In this document: positions 343 to 15,020 of the stretch, piece by piece | How the letters are laid out: every line of letters starts with the position of its first letter | How positions within the stretch are numbered: the first letter of the stretch is position 1 | The notes under the pieces: generated by a model | What the model was told of the DNA's origin: nothing | The model's input: the letters and a program-made list of their open reading frames with translations, nothing else | Databases searched by the model: none | Assembly (NCBI GenBank): GCA_964410905.1 | Contig: CAYPIR010000004.1 | Coordinates: forward strand, 9,878 to 73,877 | Reading direction: 5' to 3' | Origin: an uncultured bacterium | Lineage (GTDB): Bacteria > Omnitrophota > Omnitrophia > Omnitrophales > Aquincolibacteriaceae | DNA: 64,000 nucleotides | Position numbers and translations under genes: made by a program

Positions 343-1388
343 TGATTAACTCCCAAAAGACTTGTTATTTGTTCCGTCAAAACGTCTTCTCCGGAAACTA
401 TTTTCATTCGAGCCGCAAGAACAAGCGGATTTAAATGTTCGGAAATTAAATTTTTGGCGCGAAAAAAATCTTTTTCCGTCGTGAGAATTTCTTCCGCGGC
501 GGCAGACTGCGAAATATCTTTTATTTGTTTTAAATCTTTCCGACTGTAGTTGTGATGATCTAAAAACTCAAAATTGCGCACGGTTTTAAGCCCGGCTCGC
601 TGCAATAAAAGTTGAAACGACCGCGGAGTCCCAACGCCCGCAAAGGTCGCTACCTTTTTTCCCTCTAACTTATCCAAAGAAAATCTAACGCGAGTTTTTG
701 CGCGATACAAAAAAAGCGGCTCCATTGCCGTTTCGACAAATTGGGCTTGGGGCGCAAAACTTTTTAATGTTTCTTTTAATTTTTTATTCTCTTCTAAAGA
801 AATTAAATTTCCGTGCGTTATCACAATGACGCTTGCGCGAGAAAGAGTCTCAAGAGGCTCTCGCAAAATACCGCGCGGAATTAATTTCCCGTTGCCAAAA
901 GGATTAATGGCGTTTATCAAAATCCATTCCGCGTCACGAAACAATTTTTGATGTTGAAATCCATCATCTAACAAAGCCACGTCAACGCGACGTTTTTCTT
1001 CAGCGACCCGCCTTGCGACCTTGAGTCTGTCGCGACCCACTCCGACAACCGCCATTGGCAAATGATGCTGCAGCTCCAGCGCTTCGTCATGGCTATAACC
1101 GCGAGTTAAAACCAGCGGAGTTTTTTTGAAAGTAGAAATTTTCCTAGCAAGCAACTCAGCAAATGGTGTTTTGCCCGTCCCGCCCCAAGTTATATTCCCG
1201 ATGCTAATAACCGGATAAGGTAATCTTGAACGCTTAAAGATGTTTTTTTCATAAAATGAACGCCGCGTTCGAACCGCAAAACCATACACAAAAGAAAAAA
1301 GAGACAATCCAATCTTCCAAAATTCGCTTCCGAATCCATTTTGTTTATTTTCAGCCAAAAGCCGAAAATAATTTTTTATTCCTTCCAT
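339..1388 (-). CDS. lpxK: Tetraacyldisaccharide 4'-kinase
   Basis: 349 aa with the LpxK P-loop GNITWGGTGKTP; adjacent to waaA and an LpxL-like gene. Confidence 0.85.
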   Translation of the reverse strand: MEGIKNYFRLLAENKQNGFGSEFWKIGLSLFSFVYGFAVRTRRSFYEKNIFKRSRLPYPVISIGNITWGGTGKTPFAELLARKISTFKKTPLVLTRGYSHDEALELQHHLPMAVVGVGRDRLKVARRVAEEKRRVDVALLDDGFQHQKLFRDAEWILINAINPFGNGKLIPRGILREPLETLSRASVIVITHGNLISLEENKKLKETLKSFAPQAQFVETAMEPLFLYRAKTRVRFSLDKLEGKKVATFAGVGTPRSFQLLLQRAGLKTVRNFEFLDHHNYSRKDLKQIKDISQSAAAEEILTTEKDFFRAKNLISEHLNPLVLAARMKIVSGEDVLTEQITSLLGVNH

Positions 1389-1417
1389 TTTAAAAACCGT
1401 CCTTTCTAAAAATCTTT

Positions 1418-2731
1418 CTATGAGTTTGGTTTTTCAATATTGTTTTTCACAAACGCTAAAACCCAACCAGCTTGCCTCTTACTTGCCCCGCGCAAAAGAT
1501 TTACGCTCGCGAATGCCTGCTTGCCCAAATTTCCTTTTTTTTCTGTCGACAAGATTATGGAGCGAGCCGCATCTGCCAACTCGTTTTCATCTGAAACTTT
1601 TATAGCGCCATCGCGAGAATTTAAATACTCATAAATTTTTTCAAAATTAAAAACATAACCTCCGTGCAAAATCGCTTTTTTAAACCGCGCGGCCTCAATA
1701 GGATTTTGTCCGCCATGTTTAACCAAACTTCCTCCTATAAAAACAAAATCCGCCATCAAATATGTGTCTCTTAAAATCCCGATTTTATTTAAAATTTGAA
1801 CTTCAGACGCGGGCGTATTTTTTCTCTCAGTCGCCAAAATGGTGTTTAGTTCCTTTTGCGTAAATATGCCGGAGATCTCCGCCGAGCGTTCAATATGTCT
1901 TGGAGCAATAAAAAGTTTTAAATTTGGAAATTCTTTTTTCAACGAGCTAAAAACTCGCGCGACAATTTCTTCTTCGCCCGGATGAGTGCTCCCAACAATC
2001 CAAACAATATCCGCCGCGCTATATCCCCACAAAGTTTTCATTTCCAAAACATCTTTTTCTGTCCAACTTTTTTCATCAACCAAATCAAACTTCATATTGC
2101 CCATATCTCTGACAGCTTCCTCGTCAACGCCAAGCGCGCGAAACCTTTTCGCGTCTTCTTCCGACTGCGCCAAAACAAATTTTATTTTTTGCCATATCGG
2201 CTTTAAAAACCATTTTATTTTTAAATAACGGCTCAGTGACCGCTTTGAAAGCCGCGCGTTAATCATGCCTACTGGGATTTTTCTTTTAAAGGCTTCCGTC
2301 AAAAAGTTAGGCCAAATTTCCGTCTCCACGAGCAGTACGCAAACAGGTTTAAAAAAATCAAAAAACTTCGCGACAATCCAAGAAAAATCAAATGGAAAAT
2401 AACAAACATGCACGCGGGTATTTTCGTATTTTTTTGCTATTTTTTGGCCTGTCGGAGTTACTGTGGTAAACAACACCTTGTATTCATTGTTTGCTTTAAG
2501 CCAATTTTCTAAAAACTTTTCTACCGCTATGGTTTCGCCAACGCTCACGGCATGTATCCAAACCCATTTTCCCGTTTGAAACTTTTCTTGCCACTCCTTA
2601 GGAAAAACTCCGCGCCTCTCATTCCACAAACTTTTGGGATTGCCAGCCTGTCTTATTTTCATTAGAAAAATCGGCGCATAAAAAATCCCGAAAAAAAGAA
2701 ACGCCGTATTGTAAAAAAAAGTTCTTAACAT
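1418..2731 (-). CDS. waaA: 3-deoxy-D-manno-octulosonic acid (Kdo) transferase
   Basis: 437 aa; N-terminal TM segment, WIHAVSVGE motif, glycosyltransferase family 30 features; synteny with lpxK. Confidence 0.85.
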   Translation of the reverse strand: MLRTFFYNTAFLFFGIFYAPIFLMKIRQAGNPKSLWNERRGVFPKEWQEKFQTGKWVWIHAVSVGETIAVEKFLENWLKANNEYKVLFTTVTPTGQKIAKKYENTRVHVCYFPFDFSWIVAKFFDFFKPVCVLLVETEIWPNFLTEAFKRKIPVGMINARLSKRSLSRYLKIKWFLKPIWQKIKFVLAQSEEDAKRFRALGVDEEAVRDMGNMKFDLVDEKSWTEKDVLEMKTLWGYSAADIVWIVGSTHPGEEEIVARVFSSLKKEFPNLKLFIAPRHIERSAEISGIFTQKELNTILATERKNTPASEVQILNKIGILRDTYLMADFVFIGGSLVKHGGQNPIEAARFKKAILHGGYVFNFEKIYEYLNSRDGAIKVSDENELADAARSIILSTEKKGNLGKQAFASVNLLRGASKRQAGWVLAFVKNNIEKPNS

Positions 2732-2734
2732 TTA

Positions 2735-3613
2735 TTACGACCTTGGATGCGAGGCTTCATAAGCATCTTTTAGACGTTGCGTTGTCACATGCGTATAAAT
2801 CTGAGTAGTAGAAAGATTGGCGTGCCCCAAAAGCTCCTGCACGCTTCTTAAATCCGCGCCATTATCTAAAAGATGAGTCGCGAACGAATGTCTGAAAGTG
2901 TGAGGAGAAATTTCCTTTCCCAATCCGCTGCGGCGAACATATTTCAAAACCATTCGCCTAACACTGCGGTCGGTAAGGCGCGTCCCAATTCGGCTTACAA
3001 AAAGAGGTTTTTTTAGTCCGCCCAAGTTTTCTTTAGGAGGTTTTGTTTCTAAATACAAACGAAGCGCGTTTAGCGCCTTATCGCCAACAGGCACCATTCT
3101 CTCTTTTTTGCCTTTACCGCGAACAAGCAGAACTCCGCCGGAAAAATCCAAATCGTCTTTATTTAATCCTTCAAGCTCGCTTACGCGAAGCCCCGAACTA
3201 TAAAGGATTTCCAAAATCGCTCTGTCGCGTTTTTCTTCCCAAGAATTTTTCGCCGGCGCGTTCAAAAGTTTTTCTATTTCCGAAACGTCCATAAATTCAG
3301 GCAATTTTTTTTCTTTTTTCGGAGTAGCAACGCCGGACGCCGGGTTTTGTAATAAAATATTTTCTCGCGCTAAGTATTTAAAAAAGGAACGAAGGCAAGC
3401 AAGTTTTCTGGAAATTGAATTTTTGCAGTAAGCCTTTGTTTTAAGGTGCGCCAAAAACGCTCTGATATCTAAATACGTCAGCTGCTTAATTTCTTTTTTT
3501 TTACTAAATTCCGCGAACTCTCGCAAATCTATCGCGTAATTTTTTATCGTGTGCTTTGACGCGCCTTTTTCCGTTCTAAGAAATCCTAGAAAATTCTCAA
3601 CAAATTTTTCCAT
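2735..3613 (-). CDS. Tyrosine site-specific recombinase, XerC/XerD family
   Basis: 292 aa; C-terminal catalytic region HTFRHSFATHLL...LGHANLSTTQIYTHV (R-H-R-Y signature). Confidence 0.8.
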   Translation of the reverse strand: MEKFVENFLGFLRTEKGASKHTIKNYAIDLREFAEFSKKKEIKQLTYLDIRAFLAHLKTKAYCKNSISRKLACLRSFFKYLARENILLQNPASGVATPKKEKKLPEFMDVSEIEKLLNAPAKNSWEEKRDRAILEILYSSGLRVSELEGLNKDDLDFSGGVLLVRGKGKKERMVPVGDKALNALRLYLETKPPKENLGGLKKPLFVSRIGTRLTDRSVRRMVLKYVRRSGLGKEISPHTFRHSFATHLLDNGADLRSVQELLGHANLSTTQIYTHVTTQRLKDAYEASHPRS

Positions 3614-3619
3614 ACTTTC

Positions 3620-5764
3620 TTATACGTTCTCTTGAGAAAGAGCTTCGTCATCGTTTTTCTGGGGCAATGTGTTGGTTTTATAATCGCATTCAGGATACTT
3701 GGAGCAGCCGTAAAAAACCCGCTGTCCTTTTGCTTTAGTTCTACGCTTTACAAGTTCTCCGCCGCAGCCTTCTTTAGGACAGAAAAACCCTGTCGGAATT
3801 GAACGCGTAAACTTGCAATCAGGAAACCCTGAACATGCCATAAATTTTCCAAATCGCCCAAATTTAATGACAAGCGGTTTGCCGCATTTGTCGCATTTAT
3901 ATTCTGTTTGAATCGGCGCGGGGCGGACATTTTTCATTTCTGTCTGAGCGCGCGTCAAGGCCTCGCCAAATGGTCCATAAAAATCTTTTAAGACTTGCAC
4001 CCATCCGCCTTTTGTTTGCCATTCTCCGCTCGCTATCTCATCTAACTCTTCTTCCATCCTGGCCGTAAATTTTTCGTCTAAAATTGTCGGGAAATGTTGG
4101 ACCAACAAGTCCAAAACCGTTTCGCCAAGTTCCGTAGAAATAAGCGCTTTTGCCTTTCTTTCAACATACATACGCGCCAAAAGAGTCGCGATTGTGGGAG
4201 CATAAGTGCTGGGGCGGCCAATTCCTTTTTCGTCCAAAAGTTCAATCAAACTCGCGTCATTAAAATGCGCCGGAGGTTTCGTGAAATGCTGTTCGCCCAA
4301 AAGTTCACGCAGTAAAAGAGCCTCGCCGGCGCTTAGTTTCGGAAGTTCATTTGACTCCGCCGCCAAATCATCTTCCGCGTCTTGTGTTTCGCTTTTGGGT
4401 TTTTGAAAATCACCGAATACCGCGGTATAGCCCGGGAAAATATTTTTCTTTCCGGTCGTTTTGAAATAATATTTGTTTCCCGCCGTAATAATCACCGCTA
4501 TGTGCTCATCAAGCGTCGGCGTCATTTGAGAAGCAATAAATTTTCTCCAAATCATTTCATAAAGTTTTAACTCATCGGCTTCCAAAAATTGGCGGACTTT
4601 TTCCGGCGTATTTAAAACATTTGTCGGGCGAATCGCCTCATGCGCCTCTTGAGCATTTTTCTTTGCCTTATAAACATTTGGCTTTTCGGGTAAATATTCT
4701 TTGCCAAATGTCCCTAGAATGTATTTTGCCGCCTCGTCCGCCGCTTCAGGAGAAACATTAACGGAGTCCGTTCTCATATAAGTAATCAAGCCTTCGTTCC
4801 CGTCCGCGCCCAAGTCAACGCCTTCATAAAGTTTTTGCGCGATTCGCATCGTGTTGGCGGCCGTAAATCCTAAACGGCTGGAAGCTTCTTGCTGCAATTT
4901 ACTGGTCGTGTAAGGAGCTTGAGGGCGTCTGCGTTTTTGAGTAACATCAACGCTCTCAACGACAAACGGGAGGTTTTCGATTTCTTTTTTAATTTGCTCA
5001 GTAATTTCTTTTTCTTTTAATTTCGCTTTATCATCGCCAATTTGATAAAATCGCGCGGTAAATTTTTTTTCTACTTCCTCGCCGGCTTTTGCGGAAAGGC
5101 TTGCATCAAGCGTCCAATATTCTTCCGGCTTAAACGCCTTAATCTCACGCTCACGTTCAACAATAAACCGCAATGCCACAGATTGAACGCGCCCCGCACT
5201 CAAGCCCCGCCCAACATTTTTCCACAAAAGTGGGCTAATTTGATAACCGACCACGCGATCAAGAATACGACGCGCTTGCTGCGCGTCAACAAGATTCATG
5301 TCAATGTTGCTGGGATTGGCAAAGCCTTTTAAAACCGCGTCCTTCGTAATCGCGCCATATTTAACCCGCAAAAATTTTTGATTATGGTTTTGCTCGGAAA
5401 AAATAGTTTTTAAGTGCCATGCGATAGCCTCCCCTTCGCGGTCTTCATCGGGAGCGAGATAAATAATTTCGCGGTTTTCAGCGTCTTTCTTGAGCTGCTT
5501 CTCGATTTTCTTGGATTTCGGAGGAATAATGTATTCGGGCGTAAAATCATGTTCAATATCTACCGCCATTCGACTTTTAGGGAGGTCGCGAATATGCCCC
5601 ATTGATGCCACAACAAAATAATCTTTGCCTAAAAAATGATTAATTTTTTCGGCTTTGCCGGGTGATTCAACAATCACAAGATACTTAGCCCCGGAACCGC
5701 GCCTTGAAACACTAGCGGACTTAGCTCTTTTTCTAACTTTTTTCATCTTTTCAGAATCAGCCAC
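3620..5764 (-). CDS. topA: DNA topoisomerase I (type IA) with C-terminal zinc-ribbon repeats
   Basis: 714 aa; Toprim region (VVASMGHIRDLP), TYMRTDS active-site region, multiple C-x2-C...C-x2-C zinc fingers at the C-terminus. Confidence 0.9.
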   Translation of the reverse strand: MADSEKMKKVRKRAKSASVSRRGSGAKYLVIVESPGKAEKINHFLGKDYFVVASMGHIRDLPKSRMAVDIEHDFTPEYIIPPKSKKIEKQLKKDAENREIIYLAPDEDREGEAIAWHLKTIFSEQNHNQKFLRVKYGAITKDAVLKGFANPSNIDMNLVDAQQARRILDRVVGYQISPLLWKNVGRGLSAGRVQSVALRFIVEREREIKAFKPEEYWTLDASLSAKAGEEVEKKFTARFYQIGDDKAKLKEKEITEQIKKEIENLPFVVESVDVTQKRRRPQAPYTTSKLQQEASSRLGFTAANTMRIAQKLYEGVDLGADGNEGLITYMRTDSVNVSPEAADEAAKYILGTFGKEYLPEKPNVYKAKKNAQEAHEAIRPTNVLNTPEKVRQFLEADELKLYEMIWRKFIASQMTPTLDEHIAVIITAGNKYYFKTTGKKNIFPGYTAVFGDFQKPKSETQDAEDDLAAESNELPKLSAGEALLLRELLGEQHFTKPPAHFNDASLIELLDEKGIGRPSTYAPTIATLLARMYVERKAKALISTELGETVLDLLVQHFPTILDEKFTARMEEELDEIASGEWQTKGGWVQVLKDFYGPFGEALTRAQTEMKNVRPAPIQTEYKCDKCGKPLVIKFGRFGKFMACSGFPDCKFTRSIPTGFFCPKEGCGGELVKRRTKAKGQRVFYGCSKYPECDYKTNTLPQKNDDEALSQENV

Positions 5765-5984
5765 GACAACTCCTTAATTAAATGAAGACAATTTTAAAGC
5801 CTCGAAAATAAAAAAGTTTTTTGATTCTAATAAAAACCTTGTTTGTTGTAAAACAAAAGTTTATCGGACGCTTTTAACCCTTTTAAAAACAATGACTTAT
5901 AATAAATTCTTATTTTCGCGCCTCGCATACACACAAAAAGGGCAGACCCAAAACGGATCTGCCCCTTATGCAAAAACTTACTTT

Positions 5985-6377
5985 TTAGGCTTCAACCACT
6001 TGCGTTTTTGCCCAAGTATCAGCAAAACGATGTCCCTTTACGAGCAATCCAACAAGTTCAACAATATAGCCCACGACAAGCACAAAAGGAATGATAAGAA
6101 GAATGTTGCGGATAAGAGCTTGAATCAATGTCACTTTTTTGTCTGTTAAACTAATGAGACGGATTTTAACCAGCGCGCGCCCCGGAGAATAAACCGCATC
6201 GCGAAATGCAAGCCACGCAATATTTACAATAACGAGAACAACATTTCTAACAACCTCAGGCGCGGCGACCAAAATAAGCCCGATAACAATCCCTATAACA
6301 ATAGGAATAATCAAAAGGTCTATGAGACCTGCCGCAAAACGTTTTCCTTTACTTGCTGGAACTAACCCCTCTTCCAT
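5985..6377 (-). CDS. RDD-family small membrane protein
   Basis: 130 aa; RFAAGLIDLLI motif followed by hydrophobic helices. Confidence 0.55.
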   Translation of the reverse strand: MEEGLVPASKGKRFAAGLIDLLIIPIVIGIVIGLILVAAPEVVRNVVLVIVNIAWLAFRDAVYSPGRALVKIRLISLTDKKVTLIQALIRNILLIIPFVLVVGYIVELVGLLVKGHRFADTWAKTQVVEA

Positions 6378-6476
6378 ATTGAACCCCTTTCGGTTTAAAT
6401 TTTTAACAAAACAGCCTTTTATAAAAATTCTTTCTCATTGTGTAGGATAGTAACGGCATTTTGTATCATTCCTTAA

Positions 6477-7643
6477 CTACAAAAGCGCCCAGCGGCCTTC
6501 GGGATTTTTGCGTATTTTTTTAGCAAGCTCAAGACAAAGCAATAAGCCGGGCAATTGCGCGGTATCAAGTCCAAGTGCTTCCAAAATCTCATCGCTTGAA
6601 GCAGATCCTTCTTCGGACAAAAATTCCAATATGTTTTTTTCATCTTGATTAAAACTGTCTTTGTTTTTTTCTACCGTTTTAGAAACAAAAAATATTTTTG
6701 ATAGAAAATTTTCTTTTTTATCTTTTTCCGCCTTATCAAGCGTCTTATCTTCCGTCTCTGTTTGTTCTATAAATTTGTTATCAAGCCGCAGCTTATCCGC
6801 CAAAACAAGTAAAACATCTTCCGCTGTTTCAACAAGATAGGCGCCCTCTTTGATAAGCTTATTGGTTCCCCGAGACGTAAGCTGGTCAACCGGGCCAGGC
6901 AGCGCGAAAACATCTCGCCCTTGTTCAACCGCTTGATGCGCGGTTATAAGAGACCCGCTTCGCGCGTGCGCTTCAATAACAAGCGTCGCGCAGGTGAGTC
7001 CTGATAAAATTCTATTACGGCGCGGAAAATTTTCAGGCTTTGGCAGAGTCCCAATAGGATATTCACTTAAAACCGCGCCGCGTTCCGCTATTTGTTCAAA
7101 AAGTTTCCTGTGCTCTTCAGGATAAACTTTATCCATTCCGCAGCCCATTACGGCCAAAGTCCTGCCGTAAGAAATTTGTAAGGCCGCGTCATGAGCTATG
7201 CCGTCAATGCCGCGAGCAAGTCCCGAAACTATAGTAAGTCCTTTTGCCGCTAATTCCTGCGCGAATTTCTTGGTTTGTGTTCTACCGTAAAAACTAGGAT
7301 GCCGCGTCCCGACAATGGCAATGGCATTTTGATCATCGTCGATAATTTCCCCTTTCTTGTATAGGACAAGCGGCGGGTCGGGAATTTCCTTTAAAATTCT
7401 TGGATAAAACTCGTTCGTCCAGCACAAGAAATCAACTCCAAGTTTTTGACAAATCTCAATTTCTTTTTCTGCCGCAAATCGCTCAACTATTCCCTGAAAC
7501 AAGTTTTCATTTTCAATTGCTGCTAAAACATCTCGCGGAGATTTGCCTTCGCTTAAAAAATGTAACGTTCTGCGCCTTCCGGACGCCGAAAGTCTATTAA
7601 GCGTAAGAAATGCTTCTAAATCTTTTGTTTGAATACCGTCCAT
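6477..7643 (-). CDS. dprA: DNA-processing protein DprA (Smf)
   Basis: 388 aa; Rossmann-like DprA core (IVGTRHPS...GCGMDKVYPEEH...FALPG) and C-terminal winged-helix-like tail; conserved dprA-topA neighbourhood. Confidence 0.85.
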   Translation of the reverse strand: MDGIQTKDLEAFLTLNRLSASGRRRTLHFLSEGKSPRDVLAAIENENLFQGIVERFAAEKEIEICQKLGVDFLCWTNEFYPRILKEIPDPPLVLYKKGEIIDDDQNAIAIVGTRHPSFYGRTQTKKFAQELAAKGLTIVSGLARGIDGIAHDAALQISYGRTLAVMGCGMDKVYPEEHRKLFEQIAERGAVLSEYPIGTLPKPENFPRRNRILSGLTCATLVIEAHARSGSLITAHQAVEQGRDVFALPGPVDQLTSRGTNKLIKEGAYLVETAEDVLLVLADKLRLDNKFIEQTETEDKTLDKAEKDKKENFLSKIFFVSKTVEKNKDSFNQDEKNILEFLSEEGSASSDEILEALGLDTAQLPGLLLCLELAKKIRKNPEGRWALL

Positions 7644-7965: not shown

Positions 7966-10900
7966 TTACGCAGATTTGGCAATTACGAAATCGCTGGCAA
8001 GTTTTTCCGCCAGAGATTTAAAAAGCGTTCCCGCCAAATTCAGGAACCTATTAATCATTTTTTCATTCACAACAATCGGTTTCTCGCGCAGCGCTTCTGT
8101 CAACTCTTCCGCCAACGCGAGTTCGTCTGAGCTGATCATCGCTTTAAGCGAAATGCCGTTTTTGGCAAGAAATTTAACCGCCTCTGTCGCGTCAGAAAAA
8201 ACTTCCACTCTATTTTGAAGATTTTCCGCCGCTATGATTTTTTTAATACTTTCAATTTGCGAACGGTCTTTTTCCAAAATCACAAAACTGCTCCCCGCGT
8301 AAATCGTCTTAGCAAGCGCCAGCAAACCCTTTCCTTTAGCGAGCGCCAAATCCGCGCCCAAAATAAACGAGTCGTTTCCATTAACTTCAAGCCCAAGCGC
8401 TCCAACGGCATTTTGAATAGAAGTTTTAGCCCCTTTGGAAGAAATGCTATTGCTAGCCTCTGTATCAGCGGCCAAACGTTCTGGATTAGCAAGAGCGGAA
8501 GCGAGTCCATCTGTTACCTCTGCCGTTACAAAACGGCTCGAGCTTTCGCTTCCGCCGGCATTTCCGTCCGCTGTTTTATTTTCATTTAGAAAATAAGAAG
8601 ACGGAATGTTTTCTTCATTTTTTCGCGCGCGAACGTCAGCGCGGTAAACTATTGCTTCCACAATAGAGTTTCCGCTTGAACCAAACGCGTCTCTTTTTCT
8701 AACCGTCCAATCTATAGCATTCTCATTTCCGACTCTGGAATACCCTTCATCTCTTCCAAGACGAAGCCTCCTGTCAAATTCCGCCATTGCCTTGTTAAAA
8801 ATTTCCAAAATTTTTTCACTTTCCTTTTCGCTGGGCAGAAGAGTTGTTCCCGCTTGAAATTCTTCGGCATCAACTCCATTTTTCAAATTTTCTTTTTCAA
8901 GCCTAGCCTCTATTGAATATTTCAGATAATGAGGCAGCCGCACAGCCTCAAGCCATTGCGTTCTATCACGGCCGTTCGCGCCTTCACGATTAACCGGAAC
9001 GCCTACCGTCCAACCATCGCCATCTTTTGAATGATAAAAACTATCTCCAGAACGAATGCCGTAAATTCGGCCTCGCAAAGCGTTCACTACAACATAAGAC
9101 GCAGTCGAAGAATTTTGAATGGGAGATTTTGACAAATCAAGAACCTTAAACCACGCCTTACCGTCTTGAACGTTATACGGCTCTGATGAGAAATGAATCA
9201 CATTAAAAAGATTTCTTTCTTTAAATTTTCTCGACATCGCAAATCCGCTTGTCGGATCGGTTTTGCGAATAAGCGCTTTGCCGTCCTTAAAAAATCCTTT
9301 ATATTTTTCGGACTCTATTGTCTTTTTAAGCTGCGAGTAATATCCAAAATCCCAGTTCTTCATTTCATCAAGCAAAGACGGTTCCAAAAATGTTACAAAA
9401 CTCATCACCGCCCGCATCCCTCGCGCGAATGTTCCAACCGCAACATTTCTAGGAAGACCAGAAATTTCTTGCAACAATTCCTTCAAAGCGCCCGGCATTT
9501 CTTGAGCCTTTTGGATTTCGCGGGCGATAAAGTCAGCGTTATTTTGCTTTCCGGCAAAAAGATGTCCCTGCGAAAGATCTAATACTGCTAACAAAAACGG
9601 GTGCCCGACTCGTCCAAGTTCTTTTCTCTCTTTTGTATCAATCCTTGTAATTTTCAGCGCCTGAAATCCTACGTCCTTGGGAATGCCGACATCTAAACCT
9701 CTTTGAGTAATATCGCCGACAGAATACGAGCCGTATTTCGCGCTCAAGCCGGCGTCTTCTATACGAACCGTGCCCACGCCGGGCAACAATCCTTTCCAAA
9801 CGGGTCCGCCCTGTATTCTTCCCCAGACTTTAGCTGCATCACTTTTCTTTCCTTGAGGATAACCAAACCAGCCCCTGTCGAAAACAAGAAGATATACCGG
9901 ACCTTTTTCATAACGGAAAGGATACGCGGTTATCAAGTCCGTGGATGTTACAAACTCTTCATCGCCTGAAATCTTTTGGTTTTGCCGTTTTATAGCTTTT
10001 TCTAAATAGATTTTGTAGCCCGCATTTTTAAATATGGCGGGACTCCACGCTCGCTCATTTGCCGATTCTTGCAAATATTGTCCAAAAACATCTAATACGA
10101 AGGTGTCCAAAAGAGTAAGCGTTTCTTCATCTTTTATCTGTTCGCTTACAACACGGCTTATATCGTTCCATATATCCGCATAATCTTCATCGTAAACAGT
10201 TAGAAAAATCGCCCGTTTTTCTTCAACAGCGCTTACCCCGTCTATTTTCTTAAAAATCCCTTTTCTGAATGCCGCAAAACCCTCAACGGCGTTTCTCTTT
10301 ATTTTTTGGAACTCAGTTTTTTCTGTCTCGTCAAAAATATCTTCAAAGCTCGCGAGCTGCGTTGTATAAAAAACAGCTTTTTGCCAATTCAAAGTTTCCG
10401 CGGTGGCCGCTACGCGCTTAAAAATACTTTTCACTTCTATTCTTCGCGCGATTTCCCGCAACAATCTGCTAGCCTCTGGGATTCGGGTCAGCAGCACATC
10501 CATATTGTCCGTGCTAAGAGAACCCGCCAATTTTTCGATCTCTGTTTTTGCGACAACTTCAATCAATGAGTGCTCATTTTCAAACGGGCTTCTTTTAGTT
10601 TTCACCATTTCATCCGCCCAACCGTTTAAATCTGAATACCCAATGCCTTTAGCCGAGAATTCACTGGCGAGCCTGTCTAATTCTTCATATGTTGCGGCTA
10701 CTATTCTTTGTTCAGATCTGTTATTTTCATCACTTCGCACTTCATCGCGAAGACTTCCCCAAGCCACTTCGTTTTCTTTTACAACTCGCATCCAGAGCAA
10801 GTCTTCTACGCCCTCCACATGCAATTGCTTAGAAAGCGAGTCCACCATAATAAACGGCTGTCTTCCTTTAGTATCATCTATGATAATCGTATAAACCGTT

Positions 10901-13161
10901 CCTGATGCTCTAATTTTAAATTCGACAAGTGTTCCACGCAGTTTCTCTTCTGAAACATTTTTCTTTTCCAAAAACTTTACGATTGTCCCTCTCTCATCTT
11001 TTAAATCATCCTCAGAAAATGAAAAAATAGGCTGTGTTTGCCGCCCGCGATTTTCGCTTCTACTGACAAGATTTTTGGGATACATAAAAAACGAATCGCC
11101 CGCGCCCTTTAAAATCCATTCTTTTTCATCTTTTAAATTCGTAGCCTCTAACAGTTTAGTTAAAATAACTCGACCGGCGGAGTCAGGCATTAACAAATAA
11201 GCGTTTCCATTTTTTTTGTCTAAGTATTTTTGCCGTTCTTCTAAATTTTCCGGCAAATCTCGGGCAATGTTTCTATCCCAAATCTTCTGAGTGAAAACGC
11301 GCACTCGTTTGTTTTTTTCTTCATAAAGCGCCACCAACGCATCGGTGCTTTCAGATCCAATCGCCTTGCGAAATTCCGCAGGAATAGTTATCCGATTTTT
11401 TCCATCAAGATTAAGAAGGAATGTTCCTAAAAATTTACTTTCATAATCAACATCTATTAATTTCCTTAAAACATATTCAACAAGCTGTGGATTAATTTGC
11501 CCAACATTATCAACTATTTGTTTCACGAGAAGAGCGTAATCTCTTCGCCAATTTTCCGGATTCTGCGCTTGAGAGAATCTAATATCGCTCCGAACAGTCG
11601 GAGCTATATATGAACCGGAAACGCTTTTTCGTCCTAAAAGCGCCGTTAGATAATTTTTTTTATCTTGGAATGAAACTTCGCTTATTTTTGGGGTAATGCC
11701 GATATATGAAGCATAGTTTTTTTGAAACGCTTTTTGGAATCCTTCGGTATGAAATCCGCCCGTAATTAAAATCGTTTTTGTTTCGCCAAGTTCTTTTAAG
11801 CGGCTAAAAACGTTTTCCGCCATAAAATTTTCACGCTCAATCGCTCCCTCGTAAAACTTAAGAGCGTTTGAAAAAGTCTCTTTAACGCTCTGAAACTCCG
11901 CTTCGCGCGTAAGAGACAAATCAATTTGGGCGAGCTTAACTATCGATAATTTCTCTTCCCTCAACAAGTCATATTCCCGTCTGGACATTTCAAGCCGCAA
12001 CGCTTTTTTTATGAGTGAATATTCGTTTAAATTTTGAACAAGATTTTTTTCATCATTTGTTTTAATTAATTTTTCTTCGATTTCTTTAATAAGCCGCTCT
12101 ATTTCCGTTTGCAAGGTCTCGATATCAATTTCGGAAGTCAAAATCATTTTTTGTATAAAAACTTTAAGATTCGGATATGCGTCAAAAGAAAAATCTGCGG
12201 GGCTTGCGTCTACCAGACGTTCAAAAATAAACCTTGTTTCGTAAATTGGAAGTTCATTTCGGGAAGCGAGATCAAAGACTTTCTCAATATCAGCCACGAC
12301 TTTAGGATTTTCAAAACCTTCGTTTTTAATGTTTAGTCGAATATCATTTAAAAATTGTTCTTTCTCTTCCTCGAGTTTTTGGGAGGTGGGATTTTTTTCC
12401 GATTTAATTTTGAAATACCGAGTAAGAGCAGGATAATTTATTTGCTCGCTAATGTCCGCTAGATTTTTTTCTAGTTCCGATGAGTATGTCTTCTTTAATC
12501 TCTCAACCCAATCAGTGAGGGTTATTTTCCCGTCTTCGTAAGCAGTTTTCTCCGTTAAAAATTCACGAAGATTTTTATTCAGTTTTTCCCCCGCGGACTT
12601 TTGCCATTTTATATAAATTTTATTCAAAAACGTTTCCACTATTTTACGCTTAGAAAAAACTTCACGATAAAGCTCAAGATTCTTTTTATACTCTTCGGGA
12701 TTTTCAACTCCCCAGCCTTGAACAGCGTCTGGATGCTTCATCAGAAACGCTTCCGCCCCTGTCATTTCTCCCGCGCTCATCAATGCTTTATTAATTTTAT
12801 TTTGGACAGCTTCGTCTTCGGAGAATACGAAAAAATCGGGGTCAAGCTGAAAGCCCGCGCCTTCCATCAAAACCAGATTAATCCCGTAAGATTGGTATAG
12901 ATGCTCCAAAATAGCTTGTATGTTTTTTTGCGCGTCATAATTAGAATGCGCCTCTTGAATATGAACAATAAGCGGCGCGTCATTTTTCGCAAAAACAACT
13001 TTATCAATACTGCCAAGACCAAGCGGAATTTCCAAGCCAAAAGCCTTTGAAGAAGCCCCCGCTGTTACAAGCGTCGGCGCGTTCGCGAAAATATTTGTCG
13101 CAAAAAAAGTGGTTAAAACGCTAATTGATATGATTTTTTTAATTTGATTTTTAAAAGACAT
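7966..13161 (-). CDS. Giant (1731 aa) predicted secreted protein of unknown function. N-terminal Sec signal peptide, TraB/GumN-like N-terminal region, internal MraZ-like module, about 1000 aa unassigned C-terminal region
   Basis: Single uninterrupted ORF with an AAGAGGA RBS before the ATG. N-terminus MSFKNQIKKIISISVLTTFFATNIFANA|PT looks like a signal peptide with an AXA cleavage site. Residues about 577-697 align motif-for-motif with MraZ (see findings). Confidence 0.7.
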   Translation of the reverse strand: MSFKNQIKKIISISVLTTFFATNIFANAPTLVTAGASSKAFGLEIPLGLGSIDKVVFAKNDAPLIVHIQEAHSNYDAQKNIQAILEHLYQSYGINLVLMEGAGFQLDPDFFVFSEDEAVQNKINKALMSAGEMTGAEAFLMKHPDAVQGWGVENPEEYKKNLELYREVFSKRKIVETFLNKIYIKWQKSAGEKLNKNLREFLTEKTAYEDGKITLTDWVERLKKTYSSELEKNLADISEQINYPALTRYFKIKSEKNPTSQKLEEEKEQFLNDIRLNIKNEGFENPKVVADIEKVFDLASRNELPIYETRFIFERLVDASPADFSFDAYPNLKVFIQKMILTSEIDIETLQTEIERLIKEIEEKLIKTNDEKNLVQNLNEYSLIKKALRLEMSRREYDLLREEKLSIVKLAQIDLSLTREAEFQSVKETFSNALKFYEGAIERENFMAENVFSRLKELGETKTILITGGFHTEGFQKAFQKNYASYIGITPKISEVSFQDKKNYLTALLGRKSVSGSYIAPTVRSDIRFSQAQNPENWRRDYALLVKQIVDNVGQINPQLVEYVLRKLIDVDYESKFLGTFLLNLDGKNRITIPAEFRKAIGSESTDALVALYEEKNKRVRVFTQKIWDRNIARDLPENLEERQKYLDKKNGNAYLLMPDSAGRVILTKLLEATNLKDEKEWILKGAGDSFFMYPKNLVSRSENRGRQTQPIFSFSEDDLKDERGTIVKFLEKKNVSEEKLRGTLVEFKIRASGTVYTIIIDDTKGRQPFIMVDSLSKQLHVEGVEDLLWMRVVKENEVAWGSLRDEVRSDENNRSEQRIVAATYEELDRLASEFSAKGIGYSDLNGWADEMVKTKRSPFENEHSLIEVVAKTEIEKLAGSLSTDNMDVLLTRIPEASRLLREIARRIEVKSIFKRVAATAETLNWQKAVFYTTQLASFEDIFDETEKTEFQKIKRNAVEGFAAFRKGIFKKIDGVSAVEEKRAIFLTVYDEDYADIWNDISRVVSEQIKDEETLTLLDTFVLDVFGQYLQESANERAWSPAIFKNAGYKIYLEKAIKRQNQKISGDEEFVTSTDLITAYPFRYEKGPVYLLVFDRGWFGYPQGKKSDAAKVWGRIQGGPVWKGLLPGVGTVRIEDAGLSAKYGSYSVGDITQRGLDVGIPKDVGFQALKITRIDTKERKELGRVGHPFLLAVLDLSQGHLFAGKQNNADFIAREIQKAQEMPGALKELLQEISGLPRNVAVGTFARGMRAVMSFVTFLEPSLLDEMKNWDFGYYSQLKKTIESEKYKGFFKDGKALIRKTDPTSGFAMSRKFKERNLFNVIHFSSEPYNVQDGKAWFKVLDLSKSPIQNSSTASYVVVNALRGRIYGIRSGDSFYHSKDGDGWTVGVPVNREGANGRDRTQWLEAVRLPHYLKYSIEARLEKENLKNGVDAEEFQAGTTLLPSEKESEKILEIFNKAMAEFDRRLRLGRDEGYSRVGNENAIDWTVRKRDAFGSSGNSIVEAIVYRADVRARKNEENIPSSYFLNENKTADGNAGGSESSSRFVTAEVTDGLASALANPERLAADTEASNSISSKGAKTSIQNAVGALGLEVNGNDSFILGADLALAKGKGLLALAKTIYAGSSFVILEKDRSQIESIKKIIAAENLQNRVEVFSDATEAVKFLAKNGISLKAMISSDELALAEELTEALREKPIVVNEKMINRFLNLAGTLFKSLAEKLASDFVIAKSA

Positions 13162-13376
13162 AAGATCCTCTTTCCATCATCACGAGATTTTGAAAACATC
13201 TCAAGAAGATTAACATATCTTTTTCAAAATTCAACCGATTGACAAAGTTTTTTTATATCTCTTTAAAAGCCTTAAGAAACAAAGAAAATTCATAATTCTT
13301 TATGTTTTTTAATGATTATTTTAAGGCGGGTTTTATTAAAATTACTGTATCTTGACAAGCGTCGCTATGAAATGTT

Positions 13377-13817
13377 TTATTTTGCTTCTGCTTTTTCTTT
13401 CCAATTGGCAAGAGTGTTGGAGAAACTTTCATCGAGAATATTGCGAACTTTTTCTTCACCCAAAAGCATTCCCGCTATTCCTAAATTCCAACTGACCTTA
13501 ACATTTACCTGAACGCCGCCATCAACGGATTTTAAAAAATGTTCGCGCTTCATCACTCCGCCCATCGGCAATTTTGCCTCAATCACGGCAAAGCTCATAG
13601 GCTCCCATACGGTAAACTCATTTTCGCTTTCAATATGTTGCTTGCCAATCTCGCATTGCTCAATCCATTTCAATCCCTTGCCTTCAAAGACGCTTCCTGT
13701 TTTGTCAGATTCTCGAACGCCGTCAACCCAGCTGGACATTTTAGAGACATCAGCCAGCATTCCCCAAACTTTTTCCAAGTCGGCGTTAATAATTATTTCT
13801 TTTTCAAGATTACCCAT
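13377..13817 (-). CDS. SRPBCC-superfamily (polyketide cyclase/START-like) small protein
   Basis: 146 aa; MGNLEKEIIINADLEKVWGMLADVSKMSSWVDGV... pattern typical of the SRPBCC ligand-binding fold. Confidence 0.5.
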   Translation of the reverse strand: MGNLEKEIIINADLEKVWGMLADVSKMSSWVDGVRESDKTGSVFEGKGLKWIEQCEIGKQHIESENEFTVWEPMSFAVIEAKLPMGGVMKREHFLKSVDGGVQVNVKVSWNLGIAGMLLGEEKVRNILDESFSNTLANWKEKAEAK

Positions 13818-13829
13818 TTTATAAATCCT

Positions 13830-14597
13830 TTACTTCAGTTTAATCGCGACGGGCGCGTGATCAGAACCCAAAACCGATTTTAAAATAGTAGCTTCACAAA
13901 CGCGCTTTGCAAGATTTTCTGAAACAAAATGATAGTCGATTCTCCATCCTACATTTCTGGCGCGCGCGCCAGTTTTCATATCCCACCAAGAATACTGGTC
14001 AATCTCCCGTTCATGCAAATCTCTAAAAACATCTCTTTGCCCGTCATTTATAAACGAATCAATCCACGCTCTTTCCATCGGCAAAAATCCTGACGTGTTT
14101 TCGTTTTCCTTCGGTCGCGCCAAATCTATTTCTTTGTGCGCCGTATTGTAATCGCCGCAAATTATCACTTCCTTTTTCTTTTTTAATTTCGCAACAAACT
14201 TGGACGTTTTCGCGTAAAAATCCATTTTGTATTGAAGTCGCTCGCTAGAAGCCTTTCCGTTTGGGAAGTAAATATTAAGAAAGAAAAAATCTTTATACTC
14301 TGCGCAAATCGCGCGCCCTTCGGAGTCAAACTTCGCAACACCAAAACCGTTTGTTATTTTTATAGGTTTTTCTTTTGAAAAAATCGCGACACCGCTGTAG
14401 CCGGGTCTCTCGGCGGAATTCCAATATGTGTTGTAGCCATCGGGGTTAAGTAGAAACAAATCGAGTTGTTCTCGGCGGGCTTTGGTTTCTTGAACGCCTA
14501 AAATATCTGGTTGTTCTGTTCGAAGCCACTCCAAGAAACCTTTTTTCTGAGCGGCGCGAATTCCATTCACATTCCAAGAAATGATATTTAGAGTCAT
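13830..14597 (-). CDS. xthA: Exodeoxyribonuclease III (AP endonuclease)
   Basis: 255 aa; N-terminal ISWNVNGIRA, QETK, C-terminal SDHAPV motifs of the ExoIII/APE1 family. Confidence 0.85.
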   Translation of the reverse strand: MTLNIISWNVNGIRAAQKKGFLEWLRTEQPDILGVQETKARREQLDLFLLNPDGYNTYWNSAERPGYSGVAIFSKEKPIKITNGFGVAKFDSEGRAICAEYKDFFFLNIYFPNGKASSERLQYKMDFYAKTSKFVAKLKKKKEVIICGDYNTAHKEIDLARPKENENTSGFLPMERAWIDSFINDGQRDVFRDLHEREIDQYSWWDMKTGARARNVGWRIDYHFVSENLAKRVCEATILKSVLGSDHAPVAIKLK

Positions 14598-14606
14598 TAG
14601 AATAAT

Positions 14607-15020
14607 TTATTTATATAGAGTTAAAAATTCTTGCGCGCGATCAAGCTGATCCGTGCGTATAACAAGACAACCGCTGTCTTGAGAGGAAGACGCGGTGCAA
14701 TAAGCATAAGCTATATTAATATCCGCCTCCGCGAGTCGTTGACAAATTTTAGTAAGCACGCCCGACTTGTTATCGATTTCAATTACAAGAACATCTTGTT
14801 CCGTGACAAAAAGTTCTTCTTGTTCAAGAAGCAGTCCGGCTTTTGTCGGATTATCCACGATAAACCGAACCACGCCATTATCAACCGCGTCATGAACCGT
14901 CATCGCGAGAATATTGATGTTTGCCTCTGATAACACCGAACAAGCCCGAGCCATTACGCCCGGTCTGTTGGATAAAAAAACGGAAAGTTGTTTTTGTATA
15001 GGCATCGCTCGTCTCTCCAT
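14607..15020 (-). CDS. ACT-domain protein (tandem ACT)
   Basis: 137 aa; two beta-alpha-beta-beta-alpha-beta ACT-like halves (LSVFLSNRPGVMARACSVLSEANINI..., IEIDNKSGVLTKICQRLAEADINI...). Confidence 0.55.
   Translation of the reverse strand: MERRAMPIQKQLSVFLSNRPGVMARACSVLSEANINILAMTVHDAVDNGVVRFIVDNPTKAGLLLEQEELFVTEQDVLVIEIDNKSGVLTKICQRLAEADINIAYAYCTASSSQDSGCLVIRTDQLDRAQEFLTLYK

Follow-up and report, generated by a model that had tools for sequence, protein, structure and literature searches.

A 1,731-residue protein of an uncultured Omnitrophota bacterium appears to be a compact member of a family of long modular proteins with a putative TIKI-type head

Introduction

The Omnitrophota are widespread, tiny bacteria for which a predatory or host-dependent lifestyle has been reported, for cultured and inferred members alike. 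West-Roberts et al. (2023) described very long Omnitrophota proteins (at least 30,000 residues) in which N-terminal C39 or S8 peptidase domains lie near signal peptides, and raised post-translational cleavage without naming sites (10.1101/2023.11.21.568195). Nielsen and Lui (2026) described proteins of at least 10,000 residues as multi-enzyme metabolic clusters, tandem-repeat scaffolds and dockerin types, and reported a signal peptide or a transmembrane helix in 94% of the catalogued long Omnitrophota proteins (10.64898/2026.06.07.730766). The published work asks whether these proteins are cut, and states that the cleavage points are not known. Here we analyze a gene lying in a 64,000-nucleotide stretch of DNA (the window) from an uncultured Omnitrophales bacterium (contig CAYPIR010000004.1, positions 9,878 to 73,877, assembly GCA_964410905.1). 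Its 1,731-residue product begins with a signal-peptide-like segment and a domain, hereafter the head, that resembles the TIKI/TraB superfamily; an MraZ-like module and about 1,000 further residues follow. We present evidence that it belongs to a large family, apparently undescribed and apparently specific to Omnitrophota, among whose members it is small.

The superfamily in question comprises TIKI, TraB, PrgY, GumN, Ere, ChaN, HopBA1 and RRSP. Its active enzymes have a set of two His and two Glu residues together with a conserved basic residue: E3900-x-H3902, E3930, R4001 and H4030 in RRSP, and a His-Glu pair, H85/E113, in Bcr135 (PMC6254334). The head differs from these proteins in that it always opens a very long modular protein, as its N-terminal domain. 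Compared with the giant proteins of the same phylum, the head family has the same general plan, in which a signal peptide is followed by domains of sugar metabolism, kinases and regulators (PPDK_N, HAD, response regulator, PGM and starch synthase). It differs in length, since the window protein has 1,731 residues and its relatives mostly 1,000-7,500, below the 10,000 or 30,000 of the giant proteins, and in its N-terminal domain, which is TIKI-type instead of a C39 or S8 peptidase.

A functional analogy can also be drawn with MARTX and other multi-effector autoprocessing toxins and with viral polyproteins, in which one long secreted polypeptide combines several unrelated functional modules with a hydrolase of its own; MARTX modules even include a TIKI-fold protease, RRSP (PMC6254334). 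MARTX toxins differ in that the head family has neither RTX repeats nor a cysteine protease domain, places its hydrolase at the N-terminus and has a fixed sequence, RSExR, as putative delimiter; for MARTX-type delivery into another cell, the head family offers no evidence.

The words TraB and MraZ occur in the text of neither preprint; TIKI, esterase and ChaN are absent as domain names from the 2023 preprint, the one checked for them, and the 2026 text contains no 'motif', 'linker' or 'cleav-' terms. A full-text search, whose coverage of the literature is incomplete so that an earlier description may exist, returned no paper describing the head domain or RSExR in Omnitrophota; its matches to RSELR and RSEVR concern an unrelated motif of PL7 alginate lyases.

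Results

The head domain resembles the TIKI/TraB superfamily

The gene and the parts of its product that bear on this comparison are the following.

7966..13161, minus strand: whole open reading frame (ORF), 1,731 residues plus stop codon, uninterrupted
11452..13053, minus strand: head, alpha/beta core of the Ere/ChaN/TIKI/TraB superfamily type, residues 37-570
12946..12954, minus strand: E70-A71-H72 of IVHIQEAH, putative first acidic residue and first His of the 2His/2Glu set, placed by alignment
12862..12864, minus strand: E100 of LMEGA, putative second catalytic Glu, invariant in 27 of 27 sequences
11833..11835, minus strand: R443 of ERENFM, matching the basic residue conserved in TIKI-type enzymes, invariant in 27 of 27 sequences
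11749..11760, minus strand: G468-G469-F470-H471 of ILITGGFH, putative second His motif, placed by alignment

The head was aligned with 26 relatives to which it is 22-41% identical (alignment A1, 27 sequences). Position 70 is D or E in 25 of the 27, F470 is found in 26, and the invariant residues are H72, E100-G101, G151, Y158, F436-Y437, R443, G468-G469-H471, P491 and Y504. The series E-x-H, E, R, H is present in the head in the order found in RRSP and Bcr135 and at near-identical spacing, as read from the sequence: E70-x-H72 corresponds to E3900-x-H3902 of RRSP, E100 to E3930, R443 to R4001 and H471 to H4030. E100 lies 28 residues after H72, the same distance as in RRSP and Bcr135, and H471 lies 28 residues after R443, versus 29 in RRSP. 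By contrast, the gap between E100 and R443 amounts to 343 mostly helical residues in the head, versus 71 in RRSP.

An AlphaFold2 model of the head with A1 as input had a mean pLDDT of 83.3 and a pTM of 0.81, only residues 1-37 and 511-520 being poorly defined. It displays the alpha/beta fold of the superfamily, i.e. a core of parallel beta-strands flanked by helices (PMC6254334), interrupted at roughly residues 155-460 by a helical insert and extended by further helices on its C-terminal side. The secondary structure of the model agrees with the alignment: H72 and E100 follow strands 64-69 and 96-99, respectively, R443 is part of the helix preceding strand 462-467, and H471 comes after that strand. 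A sequence-profile search of the PDB with A1 gave chance-level matches only. Taken together, the predicted fold and the aligned residues argue that the head belongs to the same superfamily as TraB and GumN, with an apparently intact catalytic set, and that it lies outside the Pfam TraB family proper.

The head defines a large family in Omnitrophota

One genome per GTDB species was scanned with a head alignment (A2) and the hits were confirmed by tblastn, which yielded at least 527 loci, encoding proteins of 1,000 to more than 3,900 residues; the locus-level details given here and below come from the best 79 of these, found in 49 assemblies. All named records among the 79 are metagenome-assembled genomes (MAGs) or single-amplified genomes (SAGs) of Omnitrophota, the others being titled 'uncultured bacterium', and a single assembly contains up to four head paralogues. 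The head is N-terminal in the ORF at every locus; many of these ORFs exceed 3,900 residues and reach the edge of the fetched flank, and the longest protein recovered has 7,471 residues. Likewise, a word-index database search returned 31 matches of 1,000-3,000 residues that have the N-terminal 500-560 residues in common at 22-41% identity; those that are named come from Candidatus Omnitrophica/Omnitrophota. Nearly all proteins from this search and from an exhaustive HMMER search with residues 711-1731 (50 proteins, see below) have 1,000-7,500 residues.

What follows the head varies. In the relatives from the first search it includes PPDK_N/PEP-utilizers, UDP-glucose dehydrogenase, methyltransferases, sigma-70 regions, MBL, PGM, FBPase and HATPase_c domains, and the cargo of other relatives includes UDPGP, a phosphorylase fragment, a response-regulator receiver and MarC. 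The window protein shows the features that define the family: a signal-like N-terminus followed by the head, a shared MraZ module, a shared module M1 and C-terminal tail (described below), degenerate delimiters and a C-terminus ending in ...AKSA. We conclude that the head marks a large, apparently undescribed and apparently Omnitrophota-specific family in which the window protein is a small member. The first-pass annotation of the window had called its domain mix unprecedented; this does not stand, since a head followed by varied modules of cytoplasmic type occurs at the at least 527 loci, MraZ is present in at least five other members, and long signal-peptide multi-enzyme proteins of Omnitrophota figure in the two preprints.

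Several side observations concern the family as a whole. Four loci (L053, L030, L076 and L071) each hold a pair of head genes no more than about 20 kb apart, which suggests local duplication or clustering of paralogues. A pattern HHHxN occurs beyond residue 600 once each in 16 family proteins, against 0.1 expected, and presumably belongs to an unidentified conserved cargo domain. In the 1,255-residue protein P0042 (L080 5265-9032), which has the order head-MraZ-MarC-tail, the MraZ module and the tail are separated by a multi-pass MarC membrane domain (PF01914), so that some members of the family are predicted to cross the membrane several times. Finally, the head gene seems to continue in overlapping second and third frames at L058 (2-3853, 3813-8357, 8132-10474), and head genes apparently continue in an overlapping second frame at L062 (9965-13207, 13072-21663) and L067 (27-2174, 1993-4284); the continuation ORFs carry RSExR, and the overlaps could be frameshifts of MAG assembly, real frameshifts or pseudogenes.

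A short motif, RSExR, lies between modules

The window protein contains three copies of a five-residue motif for which the family consensus is RSExR, and it ends in a tripeptide similar to that of the closest subfamily.

11578..11592, minus strand: RSDIR (524-528), delimiter variant, follows a low-confidence loop of the head
11047..11061, minus strand: RSENR (701-705), immediately after the MraZ module
10705..10719, minus strand: RSEQR (815-819), within a disordered linker, where a helical domain begins
7969-7977, minus strand: KSA (1729-1731), C-terminus

No other match to R[ST][ED]xR occurs in the six-frame ORFs of at least 150 residues in the window, and all three copies lie at module edges; the homologue at L002 has RSEMR at the place equivalent to RSDIR. 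In 142 head-bearing proteins (361,000 residues) RSExR occurs 453 times, versus 9.4 in residue shuffles. This is a density of 1.25 per 1,000 residues, versus 0.19 in the other ORFs of the same loci, several of whose RSExR-bearing members resemble frameshifted continuations of head genes. In an unbiased count of all 4-of-5 patterns beyond residue 600, no other pattern occurring more than a few times was as enriched as RSExR, of which 425 copies, spread over 94 proteins, were observed versus 6.2 expected. The x position is L, V, M, A or I in 81% of the copies, Ser or Ala predominates at positions -1 and -2, and acidic residues are frequent after the motif, the flanks being otherwise unconserved. 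Its codons are drawn from every synonymous family, with some bias at R1 and S, which places the constraint on RSExR at the protein level; a DNA-level repeat or recombination signal was dropped for this reason.

RSExR is depleted from the module cores, as there are 7 copies in head cores versus 66 expected, 0 in M1 cores versus 7.8, and 0 in tail cores versus 2.8. It is found instead a few to a few tens of residues beyond module edges: within about 65 residues of the head end in 36 of 111 cases, 3-5 residues upstream of the MraZ modules of relatives in 5 of 6 and at their C-terminal edge in 3 of 6, and 11-36 residues downstream of M1 in 12 of 27. Ahead of the tail, 11 of 13 cases have it at a distance of 12-52 residues. 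In P0042, RSEVR stands before and after the MraZ module and again before the tail. As a side observation, RPExR is repeated in three head proteins devoid of RSExR (23 copies versus 0.7 expected), which suggests a lineage-specific version of the delimiter.

The C-terminal residue of the family is also distinctive. Of 59 database members, 45 end in Ala, as do 18 of the 23 ORFs that are complete at the loci (about 77%), against a background of 11% in other ORFs of the same loci. The typical ending is ...[A/S/T]-x-[S/M/A]-A, that of the closest subfamily is ...ARSA, and that of the window protein is ...AKSA. The ...ARSA ending is similar to the upstream half of the delimiter, [A/S]-R-S-E, a likeness to which we attach no firm interpretation.

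The distribution of RSExR bears on whether the family proteins are cut. A rather unlikely explanation, yet one to be taken seriously, is that they are exported and never cut, each being a single multi-domain scaffold of the envelope or periplasm in which RSExR serves as a helix cap, a hinge or a docking motif, while the head acts on an external substrate, for example an envelope ester or peptide from a host or prey cell. Indeed, two of the three motifs of the window protein stand at the start of a helix after a loop, the zone of low hydrophobicity around the motif spans only about +/-10 residues, and a strict motif is missing from 23 of 117 long members. The superfamily includes esterases (Ere) and the non-enzymatic binders ChaN and PMT, and M1 is similar to accessory domains of carbohydrate enzymes. 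By contrast, a purely structural linker would not usually keep three or four invariant positions amid variable flanks, and the motif is about 50-fold above chance and strictly located between unrelated modules. In addition, the actual end of the protein, ...A[RK]SA, looks like the upstream half of the motif, as would be expected if a common end were generated or recognized.

The N-terminus is signal-peptide-like

The N-terminal segment precedes the head directly.

13054..13161, minus strand: residues 1-36, signal-peptide-like N-terminus (n/h/c pattern, read from the sequence)

Residues 1-36 (MSFKNQIKKIISISVLTTFFATNIFANAPTLVTAGA) comprise three lysines (K4, K8 and K9) followed by a moderately hydrophobic stretch of about 17 residues (I10-A26), in which the Kyte-Doolittle 19-mer maximum reaches 1.53; the rest of the protein contains no other strongly hydrophobic segment. 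There are two candidate cleavage sites with small residues, ANA (26-28), followed by P29, and AGA (34-36), followed by S37. A Pro at +1 blocks or disfavors signal peptidase I. AGA(34-36)|S37 is the more plausible site, because ANA has P29 at +1 and AGA fits the AxA (-3/-1) rule; in addition, AGA is aligned with the AxA of close homologues, e.g. ...TPAPVAYA|ANVES. The first-pass annotation had proposed a Sec signal peptide cleaved at ANA: the n- and h-regions are indeed signal-like, while the site is unlikely given the Pro. The layout of charges, hydrophobic stretch and AxA is found in 104 of 111 family members examined, and we infer Sec export of the window protein from it.

The hydrophobic core of the segment is unusually conserved: it reads VTFF[VA]TNTLTP[AS]P in P0002-P0007 and L001-L016, and TTFFATNIF (residues 17-25) in the window protein. 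Such conservation appears to exceed what generic Sec targeting needs and may reflect a dedicated recognition step.

These features also bear on an alternative in which the N-terminal segment is an uncleaved anchor, or is not used for translocation, so that the protein forms a membrane-tethered cytoplasmic assembly whose MraZ-like module binds DNA or a partner. We consider this alternative unlikely, even if the cargo of the family is typically cytoplasmic (MraZ, receiver, UDP-glucose dehydrogenase, PPDK_N, sigma-70 regions), the first AxA-like site is followed by Pro, and the h-region FFxTNxL is more conserved in the closest subfamily than would be usual for a generic signal peptide. According to the positive-inside rule, which is well established, K4, K8 and K9 ahead of the hydrophobic segment would place the N-terminus inside and the C-terminus outside, and most members have a well-placed AxA after that segment. 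TIKI, GumN, ChaN and PrgY are extracytoplasmic, in agreement with the signal-peptide-like N-terminus of the head proteins. Finally, DeepTMHMM calls signal peptides on many long Omnitrophota proteins (10.64898/2026.06.07.730766).

The MraZ-like module is a cargo domain found in other members

The next part after the head is an MraZ-like module.

11062..11439, minus strand: MraZ-like module with two SpoVT/AbrB halves, residues 575-700 (PF02381)

PF02381 matches residues 577-636 and a second stretch with a score of 40 bits (cut-off 23), each AbrB half has a DxxxR motif (LDGKNR and DSAGR), and phmmer aligns the module along the full length of MraZ proteins of known structure (9qlg, 9sx6 and 1n0e) with both DxxxR motifs in register. 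The earlier proposal of a full MraZ-like module is thus borne out. By contrast, the NCBIfam MraZ equivalogs score far below their cut-off (35.4 bits versus 162). MraZ proper is a stand-alone protein of about 150 residues encoded by the first gene of the dcw/mra operon, whereas the module of the window is internal to a 1,731-residue protein with a signal-peptide-like start, and its gene neighbors dprA, SRPBCC, xthA and ACT. Judged from these alignments and scores, residues 575-700 are an MraZ-fold module and not an orthologue of the dcw-cluster repressor. MraZ modules are also present in P0009, P0040, P0042, L019 and L004, the last as a tandem pair.

The C-terminal thousand residues contain recurrent modules

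The remainder of the protein was divided as follows.

10837..11031, minus strand: small alpha/beta domain, residues 711-775 (low-confidence model)
9967..10704, minus strand: all-helical domain, residues 820-1065 (pLDDT about 70-87)
8992..9951, minus strand: module M1, beta-sandwich, helical bundle and second beta-sandwich, residues 1071-1390 (pLDDT 80-96)
8569..8991, minus strand: low-confidence helices and disordered linker, residues 1391-1531 (model)
7969..8568, minus strand: C-terminal tail, conserved helical lead-in and Rossmann-like alpha/beta domain, residues 1532-1731, ending ...IAKSA

Residues 711-1731 were modeled by AlphaFold2 with a pLDDT of 70 and a multi-domain pTM of 0.46. The model contains a disordered linker at residues 765-825 (pLDDT < 50), low-confidence helices and then disorder at about 1391-1568, and a Rossmann-like domain at 1570-1730 (pLDDT 80-95). 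An exhaustive HMMER search with residues 711-1731 against 1.84 billion representatives returned 50 proteins; the word-index search with the same residues recovered the query alone. The proteins recovered mostly start with a head, and M1 and the tail are found mainly in such proteins. The small domain recurs in L001, P0005, P0009, P0032 and P0033, and the helical domain is collinear with P0032 and P0033. By domain mapping, the M1 core spans residues 1130-1396 across the relatives, the match extending to residues 805-1426 in the nearest ones. No homologues were detected for residues 1391-1531.

The tail lies at the very end of the protein in 12 of the 14 relatives with a tail match; 12 of the 14 end in [RH]SA and one in ASA. 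The organization head...tail is also found in P0002, P0034, P0035, P0039 and P0042. Scans with Pfam and NCBIfam gave nothing above cut-offs for M1 or the tail, and a sequence-profile search of the PDB with an alignment of 711-1731 (A3) gave chance-level matches only. The likeness of M1 to the GH13 alpha-amylase family is partial: GH13 enzymes have a (beta/alpha)8 catalytic barrel with an Asp/Glu/Asp triad, and no (beta/alpha)8 pattern is seen in M1. The tail is at most a candidate HAD hydrolase, a group whose Rossmannoid core bears a DxD nucleophile motif on strand 1. The absence of recognizable motifs in the last ~1,000 residues, noted previously, thus holds for Pfam, while homologues and the model resolve the helical domain, M1 and the tail.

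Gene neighborhood and integrity of the reading frame

As described at first pass, the gene is a single 5.2-kb frame, open throughout, with dprA downstream and SRPBCC, xthA and ACT genes upstream; it is the longest ORF in the window.

13166..13175, minus strand: Shine-Dalgarno-like sequence GGAAAGAGGA, with 4 nt between its end and the ATG (direct sequence reading)
13377-15020: ACT-xthA-SRPBCC block, gene order conserved upstream of head genes

The start codon is thus an ATG with GGAAAGAGGA upstream. The downstream neighbors are topA, an RDD-family gene and dprA; the upstream ones are SRPBCC (Polyketide_cyc2), Exo_endo_phos (xthA-like), ACT and HTH genes. A protein identical to that of the window is found on an NCBI contig of 124 kb (P0001). 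Neither a second copy in the window nor internal repeats were found by tblastn and self-blastp, and the idea of a paralogue or of an internal repeat was dropped. GC content and GC skew are even along the ORF except in one 500-nt dip, at 12000-12499, where the GC content is 0.324, versus about 0.40-0.46; it is also the only bin of the gene with a positive GC skew, and it maps to the helical insert of the head.

The arrangement of the window, with ACT, xthA-like and SRPBCC genes preceding the head gene on its strand, is shared by 17 of the 79 loci and by metagenome locus L080 (the loci compared with the window are L001-L008, L010, L011, L015, L016, L019, L036, L041, L049 and L080). The gap between SRPBCC and the head gene is 2-3 kb at most of them and only about 215 bp in the window; at L080, it holds a gene of 734 codons on the opposite strand. 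The lengths of the syntenic head proteins are as follows.

P0042 (L080): 1,255 residues, head-MraZ-MarC-tail
Window: 1,731 residues
L041: 1,885 residues
L019: 3,218 residues
L004: 3,737 residues
L005: 3,750 residues
Eleven others: run beyond the fetched flank, ten of them with more than 3,900 residues

The heads of these syntenic relatives are 32-42% identical and their cargo is different. Because they keep the head and carry different cargo in proteins of 1,255 to more than 3,900 residues, the cargo part is evolutionarily fluid. Clustering of the flanking ORFs gave only ACT, xthA and SRPBCC (17-18 loci); no conserved protease or secretion gene emerged beside the head genes.

We also considered whether the ORF might be an artefact, i.e. 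an assembly chimera or a fusion of separate genes by sequencing error, as the domain combination had looked implausible in the first-pass annotation and as the overlapping-frame head genes of L058, L062 and L067 indicate that frameshifts occur in related MAG assemblies. However, the 5.2-kb frame is uninterrupted and uniform in composition, and relatives from independent assemblies are collinear with it across the junctions: P0042 aligns with residues 17-705 (head to MraZ) and P0032 with residues 808-1731, each as a single high-scoring segment pair, while P0009 aligns with residues 662-811 (MraZ to the small domain). The head...tail layout is moreover repeated in the five relatives named above, and the syntenic loci, with their similar heads and different cargo, argue in the same direction. 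An assembly chimera was rejected on the basis of these collinear homologues, and we regard any artefactual origin as extremely improbable.

Discussion

Our preferred interpretation, which we hold tentatively and without calling it probable, is that the window protein is a compact member of an Omnitrophota-specific 'beads-on-a-string' family, that is, an exported modular polyprotein or scaffold. The protein would be translocated by Sec and its signal cut near A36|S37. The head would then act as a His/Glu hydrolase (protease or esterase), and the modules would either work as a tethered extracytoplasmic assembly or be released by cutting at RSExR delimiters, for which the head would be the obvious candidate protease. 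The MraZ-like part would be a reusable cargo module and not a membrane-exported dcw regulator of the cell itself.

Several points weigh against this interpretation. Export, hydrolase activity and cleavage at RSExR are all predictions. The head matches no Pfam or NCBIfam model even at E <= 10, TraB (PF01963) included, so that the initial assignment to TraB/GumN/PrgY holds at the superfamily level, by fold and motifs, and not at that of the Pfam family. A Foldseek search of the PDB with the head gave nothing significant (best E 0.14); its ranking nonetheless places Bcr135, EreC, ChaN and HopBA1 among the best matches. The putative catalytic residues were assigned by their order and spacing along the chain. 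As for the delimiter, the 23 of 117 long proteins that lack the strict motif count here as well, the copies in the window protein are atypical (D for E, or N/Q at x), and the short hydrophobicity dip around RSExR could denote a domain-capping or hinge element instead of a cleavage site. Finally, it is hard to see what NAD- or ATP-dependent enzymes, receiver domains and a DNA-binding fold would act on beyond the cytoplasm. This tension leaves room for the membrane-tethered cytoplasmic protein considered above or, more speculatively, for delivery into a host or prey cell.

What appears to be new is the TIKI-type head, the RSExR delimiter and the conserved C-terminus; the long multi-enzyme proteins of Omnitrophota had already been noted. 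The first-pass suggestion of a new surface, periplasmic or regulatory system may still apply, as a property of the family and not of this gene alone. In its most far-reaching form, which we consider improbable at present, the exported modular family would be a bacterial polyprotein system: exported precursors would be cut at RSExR by the head or by a partner protease, releasing enzymes and regulators, including an MraZ-like DNA binder. If this were true, RSExR would be the missing 'cleavage point' code of the long Omnitrophota proteins, and the released modules could act outside the producer, possibly in or on a host or prey cell, as suggested by the host-dependent or predatory lifestyle reported for the phylum.

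The features of this family bear on how the very long proteins of Omnitrophota act. The head, RSExR and the C-terminus offer a way to split such proteins into modules for structure prediction. That the head and RSExR together denote processing is a specific, testable hypothesis, for which the 1,731-residue member is small and tractable. In the interpretation we prefer, the presence of 'cytoplasmic' folds such as MraZ behind signal peptides would be explained by their being interchangeable cargo, and not misplaced regulators.

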